Positions 18,209 through 63,560 are shown, counted from the first letter of the stretch. The stretch is DNA of 64,000 bases from Puniceicoccales bacterium (GCA_031283895.1 JAITAV010000004.1:426-64425); one strand, 5' to 3'. Made by a program: numbers and translations. Notes: generated by a model from the letters alone, not told the origin.

Positions 18209-21200
18209 TTATAAAAGATCCTTTAATTTTTTACTAAAAAGCGTGTGAAAAAAACCAGTCTCACTCATACCCTCTCTGTATATTTTTTGAAACACCGATT
18301 CCGCCTTATCCAATGAAACTTGTATTCTGTCTTTCGCAGGGCATGGGTCTGTGAAATACTGGCATCCTATAAACCATTCGATGTCTGTTAACTTTGCATC
18401 CTCTAAGGCTAAAACTTTTAGTTCTCTTGCCATGTTTTCTAATTGCTCCTGAAGTATAGACGGTTGACCGCCACCAAAAAAACCTGTAAGTGGGCTTGCT
18501 ACATCCTCTGCTACCTTTAGTACACCCAATACGTAAAATTTCATTTTTATTTGACGCAATGCATCCAAAACATTTTTCTCATCCTTTGAACCTTGGCATT
18601 GCTCTAACTGGTCTTTTAAAGTTTGAAAATCAACATTACAGAGCTTCATCAATTGAAAATTTTTCAGCATTGCCAACCCTAATTTCTCAGTACACTTACC
18701 AGACGGCCAAATACTAAAGCAGTTATTGGCTTCTACCGTCAAATTTTTTACACTATTATAATGGTCATCAGTATTTGTTACCAATTGCTTATAATCTTCA
18801 AATTTTGCCACAAAAAGTTCTAGCGACTTTTGTAGTAACTCTTGTTCTAATGTAAGCCGTATGTCTAAAGAATCCTTTGTTTTTTGTAAAAAAGTCTTTA
18901 TGTCCTTGTCTCGTGGCACAACCAACATATTTTGCATACAGATGAGAGATCTTTTTAATTCGTTCATAATCCGTGTCTTACTAGATATCAACGTACAAAT
19001 TGATTCATTGAGATTTATCAAATCTTCATAACAATGTATCGTATGCTTTCTATCTAGCGTTTTAATTCCTTGCGTATATATTTCATTACATCTTGCGTAA
19101 ATAAGACCTACGACGTCGTTTGGTAATGGCCGCATGGACGGCGCTGGCAACTCAGGTGGGACCTTGTAACTCATCACATCTAAATACTTTGGATCTCTAA
19201 GAATTTTATCCACAGTTTTTAGAAGTTCTTTGCGACTATCACGGTTAGAGTGTGCTAAGAGTTGGATGACTTGCTTTTCCAGGCCATTGATTTGATCTTG
19301 CAGGCCTCGATTCTGAGCTTCCAAAGCACGTTTCTGATCTTCCAAGGCCTGATTCTGAGTTCGCTGATCTCCCAACTCCTGTTGTGACTGGGTCAATCGA
19401 GCTTGCAAATTAACTCTTTCGGCGATAGTTGCTTGCAATTGATCGGTAGTTGTTTGCAATTGAGTCGTAAGCGCCTGTTTCTCAGCCTCCTTAGCCTGTT
19501 TCTCAGCCTCCTTTTGAGCTACCTGAGCGTCCAAGGCCTGTTTCTGAGTTCGCTGATCTCCCAACTCCCGCTGTGACTGGGTCAATTGAGCTTCCAAATC
19601 ACCTTTTTCGGCAGTCAATCGAGCAATGTCAGCCTCCTTAGCCTTTATCTCTTGATCCTTTTGAGTTACCGTATTTTGCAAGGGTATCAGCAACTTCCAA
19701 ATTACCTTTTCCTGTTCCCGATTCAATCGAGCAATGTCATCCTCCTTTTGAGCTACCTGAGCTGTAAGCGCATTATTCTCAGCCTCCTTAGCCTGTTTCT
19801 CAGCTTCCAAGGTCTGATTCTGAGCTCGTTGATCGGTTAACCCCCGTTGTGACTGGGTCAATTGAGCTTCCAAATTACCTCTTTCGGTAGTCAACCCACG
19901 AATGTCATCCTCTTTTTGGGTCAATTGATCTGTCGACGCTTGCAATCGAGCTTCCAAATTACCTCTTTCGGCGATAGTTGTTCGCAATTGACCCCTAAGC
20001 GCATTATTCTCAGCCTCCTTAGCCTGTTTCTCAGCCTCCTTTTGAGCTACCTGAGCATCCAGGTTTCGACTGCGTGCTTGTTCATCTCTCAACCCTGTTT
20101 GAGTGTGTGTCAGCTGATCTTGAGCCTCTGTTAACCCCCGTTGTGACTGAGTCAATTGAGCTTCCAAATCATCTCTTTCGGCAGTCAATTGAGCCACCGC
20201 CGTCTCTCTTTGGGTCAATCGAGTTCCCAAATCATCTTTTTCGGCAGTCAACCCACGAATGTCATCCTCTTTTTGGGTCAATTGATCTGTCGACGCTTGC
20301 AATCGAGCTTCCAAATTACCTCTTTCGGCGATAGTTGTTCGCAATTGACCTTGAGCTGTTCGCAAGGCAGTATCCTTTTGAGCTACCTGAGCGTCCAAAG
20401 CACGGTTCTGCTGTTGAGCCTCTGCCAACCCCTGTTGTGACTGGGTCAATCGATCGGTAGTTGTTTGCAATTGAGCGTCCAGCACATTTTCCTTCGAATT
20501 CCTATGACCTTCTTCGATAAGATAAGGACGAAATTCTTTAGGTTGACTCTCCAATTCGGTTATTTTTTCTTGTAACTCTTTAATGGATGCATTTCTTGAA
20601 CTTAGTTCCGATAGCAAGCGATCCATTTGTCTGTCATCCGTAGGTTTAGCAGTCGAAATCTGTTCCTTGGGCTGTTCCTGCTTAGGTGTTTCTTTTTCTT
20701 CAATAGGCTGAATTTTATTTGACTTTGCATCTTGCTTACTTTGACTTTCCAAAGAGTTTTTAGATTGAATGGATATCTCTGGCACGAGAGTTGGAGCTGC
20801 CTCTGGCAGTTTTTGGTCCGCATGAACTAATTCGGTATTGATAAAATTTACACCCTGAGTAGGTGCGTACCTCTTGGGCATATCCAACGTATTTACGTTT
20901 TCTACGGTGATAAAAGAATCTGCTACTTTTATAATATTTGGGTATTTCGTTAACACATTACTATTCTTTAGGAGCTGCTTCAAATAAAGCTTTTTTGCCA
21001 TTTCAGAAGGTACACCAAAAACTTTTGCCATCGTTTCAACTTTCTGAAAATTACTTTGCACCACTTCCCTATCCGTGAGGCTACCCAAAGCTCTCATTGC
21101 AGTCACAAAACTCACCGCTTCCTTATATTCATTAGGAATTATGTGCAGATTTTCATTTAACCGAGAAAGTAACTCGCTGGCCGTTAAATGCCTATCTCTA

Positions 21201-21430
21201 GTTACGAGATTCACCAAAGTAGCCCACATGCCGCCAGTTTTTGATCTGGCAACGTCTTCCACAAATTGCCTATACATAGTTTGCTTATGTTCCGCAGTTG
21301 CTTCACCAAAACTTTTAGCCCAGCCTATTGGATCTTCAGTTATCGAAACGTAAGCTTCCGCAGTGCAATACATCACACTCAAACACAAAAATGTAAGTAA
21401 ACATTTAAGGAAACGACACCGAATAAGCAT
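18209..21430 (-). CDS. large exported coiled-coil repeat protein
   Basis: 1073 aa. Signal peptide 'MLIRCRFLKCLLTFLCLSVMYCTAEA|Y'. A central region of about 470 aa is Q/E/A/L/T-rich heptad-like sequence with repeated modules (LEAQLTQSQRGLT x3, AEKQAKEAE x3, and a 35-aa block GQLRTTIAERGNLEARLQASTDQLTQKEDDIRGLT x2). It is flanked by non-repetitive N- and C-terminal domains. Confidence 0.85.
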   Translation of the reverse strand: MLIRCRFLKCLLTFLCLSVMYCTAEAYVSITEDPIGWAKSFGEATAEHKQTMYRQFVEDVARSKTGGMWATLVNLVTRDRHLTASELLSRLNENLHIIPNEYKEAVSFVTAMRALGSLTDREVVQSNFQKVETMAKVFGVPSEMAKKLYLKQLLKNSNVLTKYPNIIKVADSFITVENVNTLDMPKRYAPTQGVNFINTELVHADQKLPEAAPTLVPEISIQSKNSLESQSKQDAKSNKIQPIEEKETPKQEQPKEQISTAKPTDDRQMDRLLSELSSRNASIKELQEKITELESQPKEFRPYLIEEGHRNSKENVLDAQLQTTTDRLTQSQQGLAEAQQQNRALDAQVAQKDTALRTAQGQLRTTIAERGNLEARLQASTDQLTQKEDDIRGLTAEKDDLGTRLTQRETAVAQLTAERDDLEAQLTQSQRGLTEAQDQLTHTQTGLRDEQARSRNLDAQVAQKEAEKQAKEAENNALRGQLRTTIAERGNLEARLQASTDQLTQKEDDIRGLTTERGNLEAQLTQSQRGLTDQRAQNQTLEAEKQAKEAENNALTAQVAQKEDDIARLNREQEKVIWKLLIPLQNTVTQKDQEIKAKEADIARLTAEKGDLEAQLTQSQRELGDQRTQKQALDAQVAQKEAEKQAKEAEKQALTTQLQTTTDQLQATIAERVNLQARLTQSQQELGDQRTQNQALEDQKRALEAQNRGLQDQINGLEKQVIQLLAHSNRDSRKELLKTVDKILRDPKYLDVMSYKVPPELPAPSMRPLPNDVVGLIYARCNEIYTQGIKTLDRKHTIHCYEDLINLNESICTLISSKTRIMNELKRSLICMQNMLVVPRDKDIKTFLQKTKDSLDIRLTLEQELLQKSLELFVAKFEDYKQLVTNTDDHYNSVKNLTVEANNCFSIWPSGKCTEKLGLAMLKNFQLMKLCNVDFQTLKDQLEQCQGSKDEKNVLDALRQIKMKFYVLGVLKVAEDVASPLTGFFGGGQPSILQEQLENMARELKVLALEDAKLTDIEWFIGCQYFTDPCPAKDRIQVSLDKAESVFQKIYREGMSETGFFHTLFSKKLKDLL
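19270..20470 (-). repeat. in-frame tandem/dispersed DNA repeats inside the coiled-coil gene
   Basis: 19891-19993 is identical base-for-base to 20248-20350 (103 nt, offset 357 nt = 119 codons), with diverged flanks extending the homology. Shorter modules recur near 19481/19776/20010 (ctcagcctccttagcctgtttctcagc) and near 19570/19843/20135 (ccgttgtgactgggtcaattgagcttccaaat). Region boundaries are approximate. Confidence 0.9.
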
Positions 21431-21579
21431 AAAAACAACTGCCTACCAACTTGGCTAAACACAAATATTTTTCAAGAGAAAATTTTACTAAAAGAAACAT
21501 AAAACATAATTACGTCAAATACAATTTTATTATATATTGCCATTGACACACAAAGGTCAACTTTTTAAAATGTGTCGCC

Positions 21580-22044
21580 ATGGTTGAGTTTTCTGATTTT
21601 ATTGCTGCCTATGGAAAAGAGGTTGGACTTTCCGATTTACAATTAAACCAAGACAATCTTTGTTCTCTGAATTTTGATTCTAAGATCAACGTAGATATTG
21701 TTTTTAGAAAAGAACAGGATCAATGCATTTTTGCTTCAAAAATAGGTGAGATCCCTTTAGACAATAGAGAAATATTTTTTAAAGAACTACTCAAAGCAAA
21801 TGCTTTTGGAATCGAAACCGCAGGTGCTAGTTTAGGAATTGACGAAGAAAACGATTCTATTGTCCTCAGTTATATTTTTATTACTCAATCATTCGTCTAC
21901 GAGCTATTCAAAACAGTGCTCAACAATTTTGTTGACTTGGTGGAAAAATGGATGCAAAAGCTTGAAGATTTAGAGAAAGTTAACGATTTAACTACGGACA
22001 ATGATATGCCTTTTTCTACCCCTGCCAATTTTATTCACGCTTAA
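21580..22044 (+). CDS. class I type III secretion chaperone (CesT/SycE/Slc1-type)
   Basis: 154 aa and strongly acidic (27 D/E vs 12 K/R by my count). The N-terminal pattern 'FSDFIAAYGKEVGLSDLQLNQDNLCSLNFDSKINVDIVF...CIFASKIGEIP' is the canonical CesT-family beta1-beta3 layout. Sits between two candidate substrates. Confidence 0.65.
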   Translation: MVEFSDFIAAYGKEVGLSDLQLNQDNLCSLNFDSKINVDIVFRKEQDQCIFASKIGEIPLDNREIFFKELLKANAFGIETAGASLGIDEENDSIVLSYIFITQSFVYELFKTVLNNFVDLVEKWMQKLEDLEKVNDLTTDNDMPFSTPANFIHA

Positions 22045-22095
22045 CTTCATTTTTAAACGAAAGATTTCCGAATTAAATAAGTATTACAACGCAAA

Positions 22096-22120
22096 AAAGA
22101 GGTATAGAGTTTGCCTCTTT
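22096..22120 (-). terminator. rho-independent terminator in the convergent gap (mainly minus strand)
   Basis: Stem aaagagg (22096-22102) pairs with cctcttt (22114-22120), with an 11-nt loop. On the minus strand the hairpin runs into six U (complement of the A-run 22093-22098). Confidence 0.55.
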
Positions 22121-22143
22121 CGTATGGCATAAAGTAATTAGAA

Positions 22144-23250
22144 TTAATTGTCTTTGGAGTATTCCTCTTTAACAGACTGTGCTGACCGTTCCGACGCAAC
22201 CTTTTCGAATTGAATTCTCTCTTGTTCTATAATTTCCTTTCTCGTTTGCACCGCATTCCCCAAAACACCCCCTTCACGCAAACGTTTTAACTGTGGATTG
22301 GCCTCTTGTTTTAAAAGAGCTTCACTGGCCTTTATTTCTATCTCTAGTTCTTTGTACCGATTGGATTCCATCAATACCTTTGTAGATAAAGAAAGTGCCT
22401 GTTGTTCCCTTTTTTTAACGGCATAATCCTGTTGTTGATAACTTGAACCCAAGCCATTTAACATGTCCACAAAAGATCTAGCATTACTTTCCGTTAAAGT
22501 ACCAAAGGTATTTAAAGATTGCATTAGATTTGCATACAACGATTCCAATTTCGACCCATACTCTGAAGAATTGTAATCTTCTGTTAATTCACCTATGTAA
22601 GCCGATCTTTGTGCAAGACTTATAGCTCCTTCAGTGTTTCCACAGATAATCCCTAACAACTGACCTAATTTGTCCTGATCATCTTGGCCAGCGGCACCAA
22701 TAACCTCCTGCAATCCTTGTCTTAATGCCTGAATTAAAGAAGGATCGATGCTGTGAGGGGTACTCGAGAAATTTTCAAGTTCTATGGACAGCGACAATGT
22801 TTGCCTTAGATTTTTTGCCTGTGCACCGGTAATCGGTTGATCCGAATTTAAAACAGCTATTATACTATCGTAATTATTTTTAACTTCTGAATTATTACCA
22901 CCGTAATTACCAAAATCTCCCTCTAATTGGCTCAAAAAAGCTGCCCTGTCAGCGATACTCATAGCTCCTGTTTGAGGATTACCTTTTATCAAAGCAATTA
23001 ACTTACTCATCAATTCTTCAATTAAAGCCTCTTCGGCAGCAGAATCTATTAAATTCTTTAATGTTTCCAATGCAGTCTTCAAATTTTGAGTAAATTCGTT
23101 GCTCACATAACGCGCATTGGAATTATTTTGCGTGAAATCATTCAACAAGGTAGAAAGCTCATCGTGCTGAGTGCTTGCATTTCTTAAATATTCGGAAACT
23201 TCACCTGTTTGACCGGTTTGGTCTGTATTAGAAACATCGCTTACTGACAT
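22144..23250 (-). CDS. hypothetical protein, candidate T3S substrate with internal duplication and C-terminal coiled coil
   Basis: 368 aa with ATG start. The N-terminus is Ser/Thr/Asn/Gln-rich and non-hydrophobic ('MSVSDVSNTDQTGQTGEVSEY'). Two modules of about 100 aa align: 'LIALIKGNPQTGAMSIADRAAFLSQLEGDFGNYG' vs 'LLGIICGNTEGAISLAQRSAYIGELTEDYNSSEYG'. Convergent with the chaperone gene. Confidence 0.6.
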   Translation of the reverse strand: MSVSDVSNTDQTGQTGEVSEYLRNASTQHDELSTLLNDFTQNNSNARYVSNEFTQNLKTALETLKNLIDSAAEEALIEELMSKLIALIKGNPQTGAMSIADRAAFLSQLEGDFGNYGGNNSEVKNNYDSIIAVLNSDQPITGAQAKNLRQTLSLSIELENFSSTPHSIDPSLIQALRQGLQEVIGAAGQDDQDKLGQLLGIICGNTEGAISLAQRSAYIGELTEDYNSSEYGSKLESLYANLMQSLNTFGTLTESNARSFVDMLNGLGSSYQQQDYAVKKREQQALSLSTKVLMESNRYKELEIEIKASEALLKQEANPQLKRLREGGVLGNAVQTRKEIIEQERIQFEKVASERSAQSVKEEYSKDN

Positions 23251-23384
23251 ACCATCGAAGAAAGCTAAAATCGTGCCAAATATGTAATATAATAGCGATT
23301 AAATTTCGTCCTTAACAGACGTTTTGCTACTTTTTAACTTGAAAGAGAAGAAAACTTATTGTTACAATATCTAGTGCACGTTGT

Positions 23385-24746
23385 ATGAAATTAAGTCACT
23401 ACATTGAAAATAGTTCCATGATTGATATACAGAGTACCACTTTTAAAGGTGCTCTTGAGGAATTAATGCAGTGTTACCCGCTTAAAAAAAAACGAAACCT
23501 TGCTACTTTGGTCGAAGAGTTACTGATTCAAGAAAATACAGTGTCCAGTTATTTGGGCCAAGGGATTGCTTTGCCTCATTTAAAAATACCCATGCAAAAA
23601 GCCTATGTATTCGCATTTGGACGTGTACGTACACCTTTGCAAGATGTAACCATCAATGGTAGCGAAAGTATCCGTCTCATTGTTTTATTTCTAGCTTCTT
23701 CTAAAACGGAAAATTATCTGACAACATTGGCTTCATTAGCTAAGATATTGCAGTCAACTGAATTAACGCATCATATAAATGATATTTCTTTAGAAGAACT
23801 TCGTTTCAGAATTTTAGATGCATTTAAAACAGTGCAAATTAGATCTGCCAAAACAAATGATCGCTTTAACCGATTAATGCTGCGAGAATCTTTAAAAATT
23901 GCCAAAGCCGGTAATTGCTCCGCTTTATTTCTATTTGTAGATACTTTCTTCAATACCACCCGTTTTGTTAAAGAATTAAACCCTGATTTGAAAGTGATAA
24001 CCGTTACGCATAAAGCATCGGAAGTTGCGCAAAAAGACTCCACCTACATCTTACCTGTCCAACTTTTTTCTAATGGTCGGTTAACGCAATTGCGAAGTGC
24101 CATCCTACTGGGTATTATGCACAAGTGTATACGACACAATGAAAAGATTTGCTGTATAGGCGGTATCCCCAATAGTAATCGGTTGGATACCGTGCTTATC
24201 ATTGACGTCAACAGAGAAATCCAGTCACTCTTTTCTAATCAGGCCGACATTCTCCCTAAAAATGTGCAACCCGAAGTCTTTGAAAAATTACTTTCTATTG
24301 CAACCGAATTGGCCGTTGAAGGCAGGGAAGGAAAACCTGTGGGTTGCCTTTTTATACTTGGAGATGTTCAAGAACTGGCGCCGTACGTGTATCCACTCAT
24401 TTTGAATCCATTTCACGGCTACAAAGAAGAAGATCGCAATTTACTCAATCCATTTATTGAAGAGACCATCAAAGAGTATTCTCTGCTGGATGGTGCTTTT
24501 GTCATTGGTGGCAACGGTATTTTGGAAAGTGCAGGCAGTCTCATTCATACCAAAGACCAAATCTCTTTGCCCAGCGGCTTTGGTACGCGGCACTCTGCAG
24601 CTTTAGCTATTTCCAATACGGTTGACTGTATCGCATTAACCGTTTCTGCAAGCAATGGGCAAGTAACGCTCTTCAGAAAAGGCAAAATGTTACCACTCAT
24701 TGAAAAAGGTATTGGTCACACGCATTCTGTTTACCTTGTTAAATAA
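23385..24746 (+). CDS. three-domain protein: PTS EIIA type-2 (Ntr/fructose class) + PK_C-like linker domain + DisA_N/DAC diadenylate cyclase domain
   Basis: 453 aa. N-terminal 'ENTVSSYLGQGIALPHLKIP...RLIVLFLASSKTENYLTTLASLAKIL' matches EIIA-2, including the phospho-His loop. The middle 'NCSALFLFVDT...VITVTHK...ILPVQ' resembles the pyruvate-kinase C-terminal-like domain seen in CdaZ-type cyclases. C-terminal 'GREGKPVGCLFILG', 'LLDGAFVIGGNG' and 'GFGTRHSAALAIS' match DAC motifs (DGA and RHR, here RHS). Confidence 0.75.
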   Translation: MKLSHYIENSSMIDIQSTTFKGALEELMQCYPLKKKRNLATLVEELLIQENTVSSYLGQGIALPHLKIPMQKAYVFAFGRVRTPLQDVTINGSESIRLIVLFLASSKTENYLTTLASLAKILQSTELTHHINDISLEELRFRILDAFKTVQIRSAKTNDRFNRLMLRESLKIAKAGNCSALFLFVDTFFNTTRFVKELNPDLKVITVTHKASEVAQKDSTYILPVQLFSNGRLTQLRSAILLGIMHKCIRHNEKICCIGGIPNSNRLDTVLIIDVNREIQSLFSNQADILPKNVQPEVFEKLLSIATELAVEGREGKPVGCLFILGDVQELAPYVYPLILNPFHGYKEEDRNLLNPFIEETIKEYSLLDGAFVIGGNGILESAGSLIHTKDQISLPSGFGTRHSAALAISNTVDCIALTVSASNGQVTLFRKGKMLPLIEKGIGHTHSVYLVK

Positions 24747-24795: not shown

Positions 24796-25548
24796 ATGAC
24801 GCTTACGCTAAAAGTTTTGGGAAGTAGTAGCTCCGGTAACTGCGGATTACTTATACATCAAGACAAATATTATCTCATTGACGCTGGATTTTCGAGCAGA
24901 CGTATCCTACAGCTACTGAAAACTTATCGTATTACTTTGAGCAATCTATCTGGGGTTTTTATTACGCACGAACATCAAGATCACATTGTTGGCTTAAAAA
25001 TATTAACGAAACAACCGCATTTAAATTTTTATGCAAATTTTGCAACATTCAGTGCCATTAAAAAGAAACACGACATAAAAGGTCTTTGGAAAATCTTTAA
25101 AACGGGGCAATTTTTCGATATTGATCCTTCATTATCCGTAAAAACTTTTCCTGTGCCTCACGATGCTGCAGAACCCGTAGGGTTTTTATTCAAAACCTGT
25201 AATTATAATTGCGCCTGGGCAACAGATTTAGGGCATATCACGCAAGACATTTATCAATCCATAATGGAAGCTCAGGATATTGTTTTCGAAGCTAATCATG
25301 ATGAAGTGCTCGTTCGCAATCACCCAACGCGCCCTTCGTATATTAAAGAGCGAATACTTGGGCCCCTAGGCCATCTGTCGAACAAAGCCGCTTTCGACTT
25401 CATCAAAAATAACCGCGGTCCCTGGAAAAATATCTGTCTGGCTCACCTAAGCAAAGACTGTAATTCGTGCGAAATTGTAAAGCAGTTATTCCAACCACTT
25501 GCCAATGCGTATGGGTTTAAATTGACGATTGTAGATCCTACAGCTTAA
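24796..25548 (+). CDS. MBL-fold metallo-hydrolase (YycJ/WalJ-like)
   Basis: 'LKVLGSSSSGNCGLLIHQDKYYLIDAGFS' and 'FITHEHQDHIVGL' (HxHxDH). 250 aa, 49 nt downstream of the DAC gene. Confidence 0.8.
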   Translation: MTLTLKVLGSSSSGNCGLLIHQDKYYLIDAGFSSRRILQLLKTYRITLSNLSGVFITHEHQDHIVGLKILTKQPHLNFYANFATFSAIKKKHDIKGLWKIFKTGQFFDIDPSLSVKTFPVPHDAAEPVGFLFKTCNYNCAWATDLGHITQDIYQSIMEAQDIVFEANHDEVLVRNHPTRPSYIKERILGPLGHLSNKAAFDFIKNNRGPWKNICLAHLSKDCNSCEIVKQLFQPLANAYGFKLTIVDPTA

Positions 25549-36613: not shown

Positions 36614-37249
36614 ATGCATTTTTTAAAAAAGCAATATATTCTTGATGTGCTCAATCAATTGTACCCAAATCCACAGGCCAGTTTACTGTTTGCGGATCAA
36701 CCCTTTAAATTATTGATCGCTACCCTACTTTCGGCTCGTTGCAAAGATACTCAAGTCAACAAAGTAACCCCCATTTTATTTCAAAAAGCTCCCACACCTC
36801 AAGCTATGATTCAACTTCCAATTGCAACGATTCAAAACATCATACAACCTTGCGGTCTTTCTCGGGCAAAAGCTAACAACATTTGGCAATTATCCCACAT
36901 GTTATGTGAGCAATTCCATGGACAAGTTCCCAATAATTTTGAAGATTTGGAAAATCTACCCGGCATTGGGCATAAAACAGCTTCTGTCGTTCTAGGGCAC
37001 GCGTTTCACCAACCCACATTTCCAGTCGACACGCATATTCATCGTCTTGCCCTTCGTTGGGGTTTATCTCATAAACATTCCGTCAAACAAATTGAACAAG
37101 ATTTGAAAACTCTTTTTCCGCAGAACACGTGGTTTAAACTACATCTACAAATGATTTATTACGGCCGTGAATACTGCAATCGCCGTCAATGTACGCATAC
37201 ACACCTGTGTCTCATTTGTCAAAAGTTAACGAAAAATGACGAGCGTTAA
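36614..37249 (+). CDS. nth: endonuclease III
   Basis: HhH-GPD: 'LLSARCKDTQVN', 'LENLPGIGHKTASVVLGHAF', 'FPVDTHIHRLALRWGL', plus a C-terminal Cys cluster. Confidence 0.9.
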   Translation: MHFLKKQYILDVLNQLYPNPQASLLFADQPFKLLIATLLSARCKDTQVNKVTPILFQKAPTPQAMIQLPIATIQNIIQPCGLSRAKANNIWQLSHMLCEQFHGQVPNNFEDLENLPGIGHKTASVVLGHAFHQPTFPVDTHIHRLALRWGLSHKHSVKQIEQDLKTLFPQNTWFKLHLQMIYYGREYCNRRQCTHTHLCLICQKLTKNDER

Positions 37250-38650
37250 GTCGTCTGATAACCGATCTGATCCCGAAAAATCTTCTACACTCTTTACAAT
37301 TTTTTGAACCAATTCCTTAGGCGGTTTGTCCCTGTTCTCATCTATAACTTTAAACAAATTTTGCTGTGAAAACTCTTGATTTTGAGCATTCAAAGCTTCC
37401 GTCACACCATCCGTGTACAAAATGCACGTATCTCCACGTTTAAAGTCGTAAGTTGCTTCCTCAAGCAAATTATCAAAGATTTCACTCGACACCATTCCAA
37501 GCCCAATCCCTTGAGGCATTAATTTTTTGACAGGTAAGTCGGGTTTAATCAGTAAAGGACATTCATGTCCAGCTCTCGAAATTTTCAAAGTTTGACAACT
37601 TGTATCTAAAACACAATAAACCATCGTGACGAACATTTCTTGACTTGTCTCAGCATATAAATATTGGTTCATTATTTTCAGCACAGCAGCCGGTGAATCA
37701 TACAAACAAGTGCAGTGTTTTAAATGCGCAACACAGGTTGTCATTAACAGAGAAGCGGCAATTCCTTTACCAGCAACGTCAGCTACAACGAATGCAGTAC
37801 GATCATCATCTAATTTGAATAGAGTATAGAAATCACCGCCGATTTGTTGCGCCGATTTACAGTAAGCGGAGAAATCGCAATGAGACAGTTTTATGAAATC
37901 AGAACACGGCAGCAAAAAAGATTGCACATGGCTTGCTAGTTTTAAATCAAAATCCAACTTACTTTTTTCAATTTGACAATTGATAGATTTAACATTGTGC
38001 AGCATAATACCTGCCTGCTGAGTAATTAATTCCAATAAACGACCGGTATTTTTCGAAAAAGGTACATCGCGTGTCGAATTTGCAACTGCCAAAATACCCA
38101 ATAACTCATTTCCAAAACAAACAGGAGAAATTAACAAATTTTTTATCCTCAAGGCTTCATCTAAGTGGTGAACGACATAACGGTCGATACCACCTGCTTC
38201 TAAAGCAATTGGATGGAGCGTTTGAGCAATTTCACCCACGATGCCTTCACCGTAATGAAATATCTCCCCTTGATATATCAACGATAAAATTTCTGCACGC
38301 GATAAATGATCAGGAATTTTTGTCTTTAGAGGAGGGAATAGGCCTTCACTTGCAACTTTTTTGAGCTGCTTGGAATCTGGAAAGTATTCATAAAAACAAG
38401 CACTCATACCTTCGGTACTGGCTAAACTGCTGTGCAATATTAAATGATAGAGCTGTTTTTGTGAAACGCCTTGGCTTATTGCATGCATAAATGCATGCAA
38501 TAAGTCTAAAATAATTGTTTTTTCTTTTTCAGTACATGCCCGTATATCTTCTTGCTTGGAGTACGCCGACCTAGCTTTTAAATAAAGCGCCATCAACCCG
38601 ACGCATCCCACCAAAATTCCCAATACAACATACACAACTTCCGAAATCAT
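37226..38650 (-). CDS. membrane-anchored GAF + PP2C/SpoIIE serine phosphatase (RsbU-like)
   Basis: N-terminal TM 'VVYVVLGILVGCVGLMALYL', a GAF-like segment ('GEGIVGEIAQT...LISPVCFGNELLGILAVANS'), and PP2C 'GGDFYTLF...FVVADVAGKGIAASLLM...TDGVTEA...DDLTLV'. Confidence 0.85.
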   Translation of the reverse strand: MISEVVYVVLGILVGCVGLMALYLKARSAYSKQEDIRACTEKEKTIILDLLHAFMHAISQGVSQKQLYHLILHSSLASTEGMSACFYEYFPDSKQLKKVASEGLFPPLKTKIPDHLSRAEILSLIYQGEIFHYGEGIVGEIAQTLHPIALEAGGIDRYVVHHLDEALRIKNLLISPVCFGNELLGILAVANSTRDVPFSKNTGRLLELITQQAGIMLHNVKSINCQIEKSKLDFDLKLASHVQSFLLPCSDFIKLSHCDFSAYCKSAQQIGGDFYTLFKLDDDRTAFVVADVAGKGIAASLLMTTCVAHLKHCTCLYDSPAAVLKIMNQYLYAETSQEMFVTMVYCVLDTSCQTLKISRAGHECPLLIKPDLPVKKLMPQGIGLGMVSSEIFDNLLEEATYDFKRGDTCILYTDGVTEALNAQNQEFSQQNLFKVIDENRDKPPKELVQKIVKSVEDFSGSDRLSDDLTLVIFR

Positions 38651-39132
38651 TTTTGTGAAGACAAATATTGTACAACATCCTGAAATCGAACTCTATTTTG
38701 TGCATTAATTTCCATCAAAAATTTGTGAGCATTCAGCAAAAATTCGGATTGTACTCCCCTTTTTTGCTCATTTTTTAAGCAGAATCCCACTTGTTCTACA
38801 CGTGCAATATCTTCGACCAAGTGAACCCACAAATCTAACCCAAGTAGTTTAACCGTTTCTAAAAGTTTAGCGTTTAGGCCACTAAATACGCAAAGTCCCC
38901 CTAGGTTTCTTAATTTTAGAGCTAATCCAGCTAAAATTCCAAGACACGTACTATCGATACCGCTACACTCTTCAAATAAGAAACAATATTTAACACAATT
39001 TTCTTTAAGTTTTTTTTGCAAAAACTCATTCAGGGATGGACAATTTAGATAGGTAGCTCTCCCCTTGATTCTGACCAATACGGAATCTTCATTTTCATTA
39101 ATCCAATAAACGGGTTCCTCTTTGTTATCCAT
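38647..39132 (-). CDS. STAS-domain protein (anti-sigma-factor-antagonist-like)
   Basis: 'VRIKGRATYLNCPSLNEFL' and 'GIDSTCLGILAGLALKL' (conserved DS[ST] phospho-site loop). Its stop overlaps the phosphatase start (ATGA). ATG at 39132; the track start is GTG at 39177. Confidence 0.75.
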   Translation of the reverse strand: MDNKEEPVYWINENEDSVLVRIKGRATYLNCPSLNEFLQKKLKENCVKYCFLFEECSGIDSTCLGILAGLALKLRNLGGLCVFSGLNAKLLETVKLLGLDLWVHLVEDIARVEQVGFCLKNEQKRGVQSEFLLNAHKFLMEINAQNRVRFQDVVQYLSSQK

Positions 39133-39371
39133 AAGGTACGTATGGCATAAGAGGACTTCGTATGTCAATGCCAACACGTTGATAATTATAGAAAATTCGT
39201 AATCAAAAGCAAGTATTTTACTGTCAAATCTTTAAATTAACAATGAGACTAAATTATTTACACTTTTGCATTGATTCATCCAATAATATGCCACATGGTA
39301 GCATGCACAGATCAATGTATAACCCTTAACCCTTTTACGAGGAAAGTCCTTGTAGGAGATGAGTATAAATT

Positions 39372-61343: not shown

Positions 61344-63560
61344 ATGCAAGTCATGATTGTAAATGCGCCTAAAAAATCAAATGTTTCGAAATCCTTAAGA
61401 CGTTCTTTGTTAGTCAAAATTATATCGAAAGCCATTCCTACAAAAGAAGACCTAGATTCAATCATTGAACTCACGGCCAATAAAGTCATCGATGACTTAA
61501 ATGCTCAAAGTATTACTTTGTATCTTATTGAAAACGAGCAAATATCATTCAAATACGTTTATTATTCACCTTCCCTTTGGGAACAACAACCTGATTTAGA
61601 AAATAAATTCACAGAAAAAAGAGAACAATTGCTTAAGTTAAAAATTCCGCTGGGTACAGGACTCGTAGGGAAGGTAATCCAAACCGGAGAAAGCAATATT
61701 TTTACCAAAGAAGATAATGGAAATGAGCTGTATAATTTAAGCAAAAATACTGACTTTGAAGTAACTTCTATGTTGACGGTTCCACTCAAAGATCAGCGTG
61801 TTATAGGAGCCATACAAGTACTCAATAAAGAACCAACGTCGGAAACACCGTACTTAAACCAAAAAGATCTCACTTATTTGCAAGAAATTGCCGAATATAC
61901 ATCCTTTTTGCTTTTACGTATTTTAGATCCAAACTACAAATTGAGTGAACAGGATACGGCTCGATATGTGGCGAGTTTTACGGAAAGTCCTCTAATCACC
62001 GAAGAAAAAGACTTGGTGATTGATGAACGCCTTATAAAAACTATCAATGGTGAAATAATAGCTCAAACAGGCGTATTCCCGTATAAATTTCTAGGCGATA
62101 AAAATGTTGGCGCCTTGATGAAAAATCCTCTTGATTATCAAGGCCGTGAGTTGTTTACACTCAAAACCCAGTTTTCAATCGATGAAGTTATTGTTATACC
62201 CAATTCTCTATTTGATAACTTGCATCGACGTTTTTTCAACGAGTCTTCAGCCGATCAACAGAATGCCCTTGAATCCGGCCAAGAGATTCATGCAATCACC
62301 TCGCAACTCAAAGAGTCGTACGAGGAACTGGAAAAAGTCTCCGATATTAACCTTGAAGAGTTAAAATCTGAAAATGAGGCGAGTGCGCCCCTCGTCAAAC
62401 TGGTAAACCAAATCATAGAAGATGCCTACTATGGGGGTGCCAGCGATATTCACATTGAACCCCAAGAATCCCGTCTTCTGGTACGGTATCGTATCGACGG
62501 TGTCTGCGTTGAAAAAATTAATTTGCCCGTCAAATCGTGCGCAGCTGTTATAGCACGCATAAAAATTATGTGCGATTTGGACATTGCACAAAAAAGATTA
62601 CCTCAAGATGGACGCATTGACTTTTCAAAATTTACACGTAAAAACTTAAGCATCGATCTGCGTGTTGCCACGTGTCCATCCCTATTTGGTGAAAAAGTGG
62701 TGATGCGTATTTTGGACAAACGAAAATCTGCACTCCCCATAACCTCGCTTGGGTTTTCCGAGTACAATTTGCAAATTTATCGCCACTGTATCCAACAACC
62801 TTACGGCATGATTTTACACTGCGGCCCTACGGGTTCCGGTAAATCGATGACTTTGTTCTCTGCATTAAAGGAAATTGCGAGTCCTGATATTAATATTCAA
62901 ACGGCCGAAGACCCTGTCGAATATACTTTAGCCGGTGTTAATCAGGTGCAAGTGCACAAATCGATCGGATTAACGTTTGCTGCTGCTTTAAGGTCTTTTT
63001 TGCGTATGGACCCAGATGTCATCCTGGTGGGAGAAATTCGTGACCAAGAAACGGCAGAAATTGCAATTGAAGCGGCCTTAACAGGACACTTATTGTTAAG
63101 TACCCTGCACACCAATGATGCACCTTCCACCGTTGCACGTTTTACGGACATGGGAATCGATCCATTTATGATTTCTTCTTCACTATTGGTTATTTGCGCC
63201 CAAAGACTCATTCGAAGAGTATGCAACAAATGCTGCACAAAGTGCATGCCTGACGATACGGAAAAAAAGCTCTTGGAACAAGCAATTCAGTGGTCAGGAG
63301 AAATTCCAAAGGCCACCGAACATGGATGTCTTCACTGCGGTGAATCCGGTATGCGTGGACGCATAGGTATACACGAACTGATGCAAAACTGCCCAGAAAT
63401 TACCAGCGCAATTAACAACAATGCCGATACCGCAACCATCAAAGAAATTGCCATCAAACATGGCATGCGCACCTTACATCAAGACGCCATGGCAAAAGTT
63501 AAAGAAGGTATTACAACTATCCTGGAAGCCGTTTCTACCGCCCCTCCGGATAAAATTTAA
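61344..63560 (+). CDS. gspE: type II secretion ATPase GspE/PilB family with N-terminal GAF domain
   Basis: 738 aa. GAF segment ('SITLYLIENEQ...GTGLVGKVIQTGES...LTVPLKDQRVIGAIQVLNKE'), a T2SSE_N-like segment, Walker A 'GPTGSGKS', Asp/His boxes ('ILVGEIRDQETA', 'TGHLLLSTLHTND') and a tetra-Cys cluster ('CNKCC...CLHC'). Confidence 0.9.
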   Translation: MQVMIVNAPKKSNVSKSLRRSLLVKIISKAIPTKEDLDSIIELTANKVIDDLNAQSITLYLIENEQISFKYVYYSPSLWEQQPDLENKFTEKREQLLKLKIPLGTGLVGKVIQTGESNIFTKEDNGNELYNLSKNTDFEVTSMLTVPLKDQRVIGAIQVLNKEPTSETPYLNQKDLTYLQEIAEYTSFLLLRILDPNYKLSEQDTARYVASFTESPLITEEKDLVIDERLIKTINGEIIAQTGVFPYKFLGDKNVGALMKNPLDYQGRELFTLKTQFSIDEVIVIPNSLFDNLHRRFFNESSADQQNALESGQEIHAITSQLKESYEELEKVSDINLEELKSENEASAPLVKLVNQIIEDAYYGGASDIHIEPQESRLLVRYRIDGVCVEKINLPVKSCAAVIARIKIMCDLDIAQKRLPQDGRIDFSKFTRKNLSIDLRVATCPSLFGEKVVMRILDKRKSALPITSLGFSEYNLQIYRHCIQQPYGMILHCGPTGSGKSMTLFSALKEIASPDINIQTAEDPVEYTLAGVNQVQVHKSIGLTFAAALRSFLRMDPDVILVGEIRDQETAEIAIEAALTGHLLLSTLHTNDAPSTVARFTDMGIDPFMISSSLLVICAQRLIRRVCNKCCTKCMPDDTEKKLLEQAIQWSGEIPKATEHGCLHCGESGMRGRIGIHELMQNCPEITSAINNNADTATIKEIAIKHGMRTLHQDAMAKVKEGITTILEAVSTAPPDKI

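Follow-up and report, generated by a model that had tools for sequence, protein, structure and literature searches.

A fusion of a phosphotransferase-type EIIA domain to a DacZ_P-DAC core in a Puniceicoccales bacterium belongs to a widespread family of predicted c-di-AMP synthases

The stretch of Puniceicoccales bacterium DNA analyzed here (GCA_031283895.1, JAITAV010000004.1:426-64425; 64,000 nucleotides, hereafter the window) carries at positions 23385..24746 of the plus strand a complete gene for a protein of 453 amino acids, in which an enzyme IIA (EIIA) domain of the phosphotransferase system (PTS) is joined to a diadenylate cyclase (DAC) domain for the synthesis of cyclic di-AMP (c-di-AMP). 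The open reading frame (ORF) is a single frame with an ATG start and zero internal stops, and its initiator methionine, M1, is invariant across 24 orthologues of the window protein. As evidenced by a Pfam scan, the protein comprises three non-overlapping domains, every one of which scores above its curated cut-off. A PTS EIIA type-2, Ntr-like domain (PTS_EIIA_2, PF00359) spans residues 14-138 (23424..23798, plus strand) and was found with 52.7 bits against a cut-off of 27 (E=5.7e-14). It is followed by a DacZ_P domain, an alpha/beta module resembling the C-terminal part of pyruvate kinase (PF21755; residues 160-281, 23862..24227, plus strand), with 47.4 bits against a cut-off of 27.4 (E=1.9e-12), and by the DAC (DisA_N) catalytic domain (PF02457; residues 310-435, 24312..24689, plus strand), with 71.9 bits against a cut-off of 27 (E=4.3e-20). 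An AlphaFold2 model of the whole protein, built with 126 family sequences as input, reached a mean predicted local distance difference test score (pLDDT) of 89.6 and a predicted template modeling score (pTM) of 0.71. An initial annotation made from the sequence of the window alone had recognized the same three parts, and profile searches and structure prediction now confirm the boundaries and folds of all three domains.

Among 23 orthologues the mean identity to the window protein is 45% for EIIA, 52% for DacZ_P and 71% for DAC, values that all exceed the 23% found for the linker, and by this comparison all three domains are under constraint. In principle, a three-domain ORF could also arise as an artefact of assembly or annotation that merges separate ptsN and dacZ genes. 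We found nothing in favor of this explanation and consider it virtually impossible, as the frame is free of stops, the confidence of the AlphaFold2 model holds up at the junctions between domains, and the identical full-length architecture recurs in hundreds of genomes, among them independent isolates and metagenome-assembled genomes (MAGs) and including complete chromosomes such as CP136920.1.

No other part of the protein is as well conserved as the catalytic domain, and a motif scan located both of its signature motifs. D369-G370-A371, the DGA motif (24489..24497, plus strand), lies within the sequence DGAFVI starting at nucleotide 24489, and R402-H403-S404 (24588..24596, plus strand), the family version of the RHR motif, lies within GTRHSAA starting at nucleotide 24582. 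In a Foldseek search against the PDB the C-terminus of the model matched CdaA, DacA, DisA and CdaM with a probability of 1.00, the same enzymes are included among the sequence matches of the domain, and most of its length has a pLDDT above 90. For residue counts we used an alignment of 126 family proteins that reaches down to about 25% identity. D369, G370, R402, H403 and S421 are invariant in all 126 of them and A371 is kept in 114, as opposed to position 404, where the family members have alanine (81), serine (14), threonine (14), glutamine (5) or arginine (3). To look beyond this family, a library of representatives clustered at 50% identity was searched with residues 150-453, yielding 233 clusters at E<=1e-30, and among the best 150 cluster representatives, a wider DacZ_P clade with or without an EIIA domain, the third residue of the RHR motif is an arginine in just 10.

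The RHR motif has been described as important in enzymes of the DisA and CdaA types, and the serine at its third position had led the initial annotation to suggest an altered activity or nucleotide specificity. A cyclase with RHS instead of RHR might indeed be inactive or form a different nucleotide product, and that serine together with the reported importance of RHR speaks for such a reading. We nevertheless regard it as highly improbable. Because position 404 varies freely while R402 and H403 are invariant, along with D369, G370 and S421, the serine is not anomalous, and the same variability is found in the wider set of representatives; RHS is, judging from these alignments, the normal state of the clade and no sign of altered chemistry. 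In addition, conservation within the protein is strongest in the DAC domain, and a dead enzyme would not be expected to persist as the sole DAC class listed for these genomes. Since its fold is intact, its catalytic residues are invariant, its conservation exceeds that of the rest of the protein and it is the only DAC class listed for gut Verrucomicrobiota, the domain is almost certainly an active cyclase that converts ATP to c-di-AMP.

For the N-terminal domain, the closest solved relatives are the PtsN proteins 4gqx, 3urr, 1a6j and 2a0j, and Foldseek matched the N-terminus of the model to the EIIA-Ntr structures 2a0j, 3urr and 4gqx with TM scores of 0.71-0.74. The phospho-acceptor loop GQGIALPH (23556..23579, plus strand), found by motif scan and alignment, aligns residue for residue with the GxGxAxPH sequence of Escherichia coli PtsN (1a6j) and IIA-Mtl (1a3a), and His65, encoded by nucleotides 23577-23579, is in the position of the acceptor histidine. 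This residue is invariant in the 24 orthologues and kept in 122 of the 126 wider family members, and the preceding Pro64 is kept in 124. The histidine is lost in a few members, being an arginine in P0133 and a glutamine in P0142 and P0185. The conservation of His65 is compatible with a control of the cyclase by EIIA phosphorylation. Note that the acceptor site of the window protein is not fully canonical. We take the accessory active-site residues of an EIIA domain of this type to be an arginine, R57 in PtsN and R49 in IIA-Mtl, and a second histidine, H120 in PtsN and H111 in IIA-Mtl; their places are taken by Gln49 and Tyr111, respectively. A Spirochaetia clade of 117 proteins has the canonical triad, with R49 in 117/117, H65 in 117/117 and H111 in 115/117 sequences. 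The presence of His65 in all 117 also eliminated a candidate observation of spirochaetal variants in which the acceptor was replaced by glutamate or aspartate as a phosphomimetic.

For the middle domain, the initial annotation had pointed to a pyruvate-kinase-C-like module of the DacZ/CdaZ type, and both the DacZ_P profile and the structural comparison bear this out. Modeled alone, the domain reached a pLDDT of 84.2, and the top 50 Foldseek matches in the PDB were pyruvate kinases only (probability 1.00, TMq 0.53-0.65), so that the description as pyruvate-kinase C-terminal-like is correct. The Pfam family PK_C itself is matched directly by 9 of 68 relatives. No solved DacZ-type structure was identified among the PDB matches, and entry 9g69, a DAC of 292 amino acids, was of no help in pinpointing one.

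More than 2000 matches came from a search of 5.8 billion proteins, and the best 120 all contain the same three Pfam domains. Their source names include Puniceicoccales, Opitutales, Cerasicoccus, Coraliomargarita, Rubellicoccus and Oceanipulchritudo, and the best match (P0001), 97% identical to the window protein, is annotated in GenBank as 'diadenylate cyclase [Puniceicoccales bacterium]'. In GTDB contigs, with one genome per species, at least 572 stretches encode a relative. Nearly all of the best 80 of these are labeled Opitutales, Puniceicoccales or other Verrucomicrobiota, apart from an unclassified bacterium and two apparently misassigned bins with the labels Polaribacter and Zhongshania. 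The latter two (L052, Polaribacter sp., and L062, Zhongshania aliphaticivorans) carry an Opitutia-type EIIA-DAC gene with 44-45% identity to the window protein, and their labels probably reflect binning contamination. Among the best 150 cluster representatives described above, a custom hidden Markov model detected an EIIA domain in 79. A Pfam scan of 68 such EIIA-bearing representatives found PTS_EIIA_2 and DAC in 68/68, with a middle domain assigned to DacZ_P in 51, to PK_C in 9 and to DacZ_T in 4. When a divergent member was used as seed for a second homology search, a large clade of identical architecture emerged whose named members are MAGs of Spirochaetia/Spirochaetota. The fusion is therefore, on the strength of these homologies, ancient and stable in at least two phyla, and EIIA-DacZ_P-DAC is to all appearances no one-off, as it represents the ordinary cyclase both in verrucomicrobia of the Opitutia and in many spirochaetes.

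This distribution bears on the question of novelty. The architecture, which the initial annotation had set apart from the regulatory modules of the well-studied bacterial cyclases, is not new and represents the standard cyclase of an entire bacterial class. It has already been annotated in GenBank and IMG and is covered in Pfam by a dedicated DacZ_P model, and since it is present in domain catalogues and annotation pipelines alike, the window adds a further orthologue to a large family and is no discovery. It had also been considered that the architecture might prove to be a family already characterized; it is catalogued, and the part of that proposition that refers to experimental characterization found no counterpart in the literature. 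DacZ_N-superfamily domains were reportedly introduced by Galperin in 2023, and DacZ_P is presumably one of them. In a 2026 paper, 22 DAC families are credited to Galperin 2023. For an earlier DAC classification Braun et al. 2019 name Corrigan & Gründling 2013 as the source (PMC6741144), and a bacterial 'DacD' class described there has members from Lacunisphaera, Puniceicoccaceae, Coraliomargarita, an 'Opitutae bacterium' and a 'Verrucomicrobia bacterium' (PMC6741144). Because these taxa coincide with those of the EIIA-DacZ_P-DAC family, 'DacD' appears to be the same family. A PK_C-like fold at the N-terminus is common to DacZ and DacY/CdaZ, whose branch includes bacterial proteins (PMC6741144).

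Cyclase activity is proven for the archaeal DacZ/CdaZ enzymes, with their core of PK_C-like and DAC domains, and dacZ is an essential gene of Haloferax volcanii (PMC6741144, PMC10249747). A survey of human-gut genomes places 19 Verrucomicrobiota species in a DacZ-only column, in a table that has no column for DacZ plus another class (PMC12901056), and a close relative of the window protein, L005, comes from the genome catalogue used by this survey. A role as sole housekeeping cyclase fits with this listing of Verrucomicrobiota as DacZ only, and the EIIA-DacZ_P-DAC protein is probably the only cyclase of its organism.

What could be the function of a PTS domain on such an enzyme? In known DACs two catalytic domains pair face to face, and accessory domains control this pairing. 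We consider it rather probable that the window protein is the c-di-AMP synthase of a Puniceicoccales/Opitutia verrucomicrobium and that the pairing of its DAC domains is gated by DacZ_P and by an EIIA domain phosphorylated through the PTS. We infer an enzymatic activity, a phosphorylation of His65 and a direction of regulation as follows. The C-terminal DAC domain would condense two molecules of ATP to c-di-AMP, a reaction that should require two DAC domains facing each other as in all studied DACs, and the DacZ_P and EIIA modules would gate productive pairing. DacZ_P may serve as a metabolite-binding or oligomerization module, as was proposed for archaeal DacZ/CdaZ, in which case the bound metabolite could provide a second input. 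The donor for a reversible phosphorylation of His65 would be one of the soluble carriers of the PTS (HPr or NPr), charged by enzyme I (EI) from phosphoenolpyruvate (PEP), and the phosphorylated form, His65~P, would constitute the switch. In this way the PEP/pyruvate or the carbon/nitrogen state of the cell would set the output of the cyclase. PtsN controls K+ homeostasis and transport in proteobacteria (PMC13104625), and c-di-AMP controls K+ transport in Firmicutes; a single polypeptide might thus merge two systems of K+ and osmotic homeostasis that are separate elsewhere.

A more far-reaching version of this scheme is that a regulatory PTS, by phosphorylating His65, acts as a direct switch of the attached cyclase, which would make the family the first PTS-gated dinucleotide cyclase and would let carbon/nitrogen sensing set c-di-AMP levels and K+/osmolyte homeostasis in Opitutia and Spirochaetia. 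We propose this tentatively, with odds that we see as somewhat less than even. A His65 switch is rendered plausible mainly by the near-universal conservation of that residue across the alignment and by the full triad of the spirochaetes. Several observations weigh against it, chief among them the missing PTS partners and the substitutions to Q49 and Y111. A motif scan and Pfam analysis of most ORFs detected none of EI, HPr/NPr, HprK and EIIB/C in the 64-kb window. We also examined a total of 87 loci of up to 21 kb each for PTS genes: in 82 of them (1.35 Mb), covering about 10 kb around the gene, the motif scan found no EI, HPr or HprK, and no PTS component is present in the other five, the Pfam-annotated loci L083-L087. 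The accessory arginine has been retained by 112 of 126 family members, but the window protein and the mostly host-associated proteins nearest to it have glutamine instead. The second histidine is a tyrosine in all Opitutia and a histidine in 45 of 126 members. With NCBIfam models, the top full-length-type match was a DacZ cyclase model covering residues 178-436 and the top EIIA match was PtsN, both with scores far below the respective equivalog cut-offs (104.5 versus 430 bits for NF041371, 'diadenylate cyclase DacZ', of haloarchaeal type, and 42.2 versus 138.7 bits for TIGR01419, PtsN). Finally, our literature search turned up no experimental or biochemical study of any EIIA-DAC protein.

Part of this evidence can be accommodated by an alternative in which the EIIA-like domain has ceased to be, or never was, a PTS acceptor in this lineage and acts as a structural or dimerization module or as one that binds a ligand or protein, leaving control mainly to DacZ_P or to the level of expression. 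The lack of a PTS gene near the cyclase gene in the 87 loci and in the window, the replacement of two out of three active-site residues in the window protein, the loss of the histidine in a few family members and the low PtsN score would all be in line with it. Against this stands the retention of His65 and Pro64 in about 97% of the 126 sequences and in two phyla, as well as the complete Arg/His/His triad with His65 in 117/117 spirochaetal members, and the alternative has difficulty in explaining them because only phosphotransfer chemistry readily accounts for such a pattern. The missing synteny is weak evidence, since in proteobacteria ptsP, the gene for EI-Ntr, is located in an operon separate from ptsN (PMC13104625). 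For Kiritimatiella, a relative within the Planctomycetes-Verrucomicrobia-Chlamydiae group, a regulatory PTS of rudimentary form has been inferred in one paper, and the literature yielded nothing usable on a PTS in Opitutia. Weighing both sides, we consider a domain that does not accept phosphate unlikely, and a gating of the cyclase by a phosphorylated EIIA remains our preferred interpretation.

If His65 does act as a switch, the inputs sensed could be EI, PEP/pyruvate or glutamine/2-oxoglutarate, and the R49Q exchange in the host-associated subclade of the window protein would mark an input that has been rewired or weakened. The output of PTS-Ntr is a long-standing puzzle, and the fusion family points to a direct link with c-di-AMP, a messenger whose synthesis is poorly understood in its regulation outside Firmicutes and Actinobacteria; in a review of PTS-Ntr from 2026, c-di-AMP does not come up at all (PMC13104625). 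With a single polypeptide and a single conserved histidine the family offers a clean test system. As the probable sole cyclase of gut and marine Opitutia, the protein also bears on host STING signaling by gut Verrucomicrobiota.

In the immediate surroundings of the gene, a consensus scan identified a promoter-like site 17 nucleotides 5' of the ATG (23339..23368, plus strand; TTGAAA, an 18-nucleotide spacer and TG-TACAAT). It has 10 of 12 consensus matches and an extended -10 TG, and is weak evidence because the number of such sites in the region does not exceed that in shuffled sequences. Downstream, 49 nucleotides 3' of the cyclase gene, follows a hydrolase of the metallo-beta-lactamase (MBL) fold (Lactamase_B_2/Lactamase_B; 24796-25548, plus strand), with no terminator-like site between the two genes. 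An 88%-identical homologue of this hydrolase has a precomputed match to Anti-Pycsar_Apyc1, a cyclic-nucleotide phosphodiesterase, and for the hydrolase of the window that family was absent from the direct Pfam scan at E<=1e-4. The enzyme was considered as a c-di-AMP phosphodiesterase in an operon with the cyclase and discarded as a partner at the level of the family, as the adjacency is confined to L001-L005, the subclade of the window, and absent from the rest of the family. Pfam revealed no recognizable c-di-AMP receptor or phosphodiesterase adjoining the gene in L083-L087 or among most of the ORFs of the window, and no Rfam family reached its gathering score in the entire 64 kb, so that the window contains no ydaO-type riboswitch, nor was any other riboswitch, tRNA or rRNA found.

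In Opitutia the recurrent neighbors are housekeeping genes, namely a nuoA-like gene, a gene for a protein of about 400 amino acids and unknown function, one for a TPR protein, dnaG, rpoD and trpA. The orphan nuoA-like gene (Oxidored_q4, about 124 amino acids) is located directly 5' of the EIIA-DAC gene in 35 of 82 loci and is absent at the window's own locus. In two Pfam-annotated loci it lies on the same strand as the EIIA-DAC gene and roughly 60-110 nucleotides upstream (L086, 9550-9924; L087, 9569-9943), with no other nuo gene beside it in either case. In the Spirochaetia-clade loci L083-L085 the cyclase gene adjoins clpS-clpA and a gene for a family-B DNA polymerase; in L085 a cNMP_binding-GGDEF-DHH protein is encoded about 7 kb away.

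The window, which derives from a Puniceicoccales genome of low GC content that is probably host-associated, contains further features of note. Upstream of the cyclase gene, a type III secretion chaperone of the CesT family at 21580-22044 is flanked by large ORFs without a Pfam match, one of 1073 amino acids (18209-21430, minus strand) and one of 368 amino acids (22144-23250, minus strand), and the region 18209-23250 could be an islet of type III secretion effectors and chaperones. The GC content and the CesT gene had also suggested a chlamydial origin, which was rejected because the best matches of the cyclase are from Puniceicoccales/Opitutales. A protein of 738 amino acids (61344-63560, plus strand) combines an N-terminal GAF domain with a T2SSE secretion/pilus ATPase, and a T2SSF platform protein is encoded at another place in the window (28615-29787, minus strand). 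A GAF-SpoIIE (PP2C) phosphatase adjoins a STAS-domain protein (37226-39177, minus strand), and the two resemble a regulatory pair of the partner-switching kind. The GC content climbs from about 0.37 to about 0.44 in the region from 46 to 58 kb, across genes for pyruvate:ferredoxin oxidoreductase and cell-wall synthesis.

Among known systems, the window protein resembles archaeal DacZ (H. volcanii HVO_1660) and DacY/CdaZ (Methanocaldococcus jannaschii), which likewise have a PK_C-like regulatory domain directly before a C-terminal DAC domain. These proteins differ in being archaeal and in having no EIIA domain, and the middle domain of the window protein fits the DacZ_P sub-model rather than the haloarchaeal one; with its NF041371 score of 104.5 against 430 bits it is a relative rather than an orthologue of haloarchaeal DacZ. 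The well-studied bacterial cyclases CdaA/DacA, DisA, CdaS and CdaM share a homologous DAC domain with the DGA and R-H motifs, but they carry RHR where the EIIA-DacZ_P-DAC clade has RH(A/S/T). Their regulatory parts, which are membrane helices with CdaR/GlmM, a DNA-scanning HhH domain or inhibitory N-terminal helices, are unlike the EIIA and DacZ_P domains found here. Proteobacterial PtsN, or EIIA-Ntr, is alike in fold, with an exactly aligned GxGxAxPH loop and a conserved preceding glutamate, but acts in trans, whereas in the window protein the EIIA domain and its presumed target are joined in cis. A functional parallel is provided by cases in which the phosphorylation state of an EIIA protein sets the output of an enzyme of second-messenger metabolism. 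In E. coli, EIIA-Glc~P acts on adenylate cyclase. In Caulobacter, EIIA-Ntr~P acts on Rel/SpoT (PMC10118264). Both involve separate proteins and the messengers cAMP or (p)ppGpp, while in the family described here EIIA is linked covalently to a c-di-AMP synthase that it would regulate within one and the same chain.

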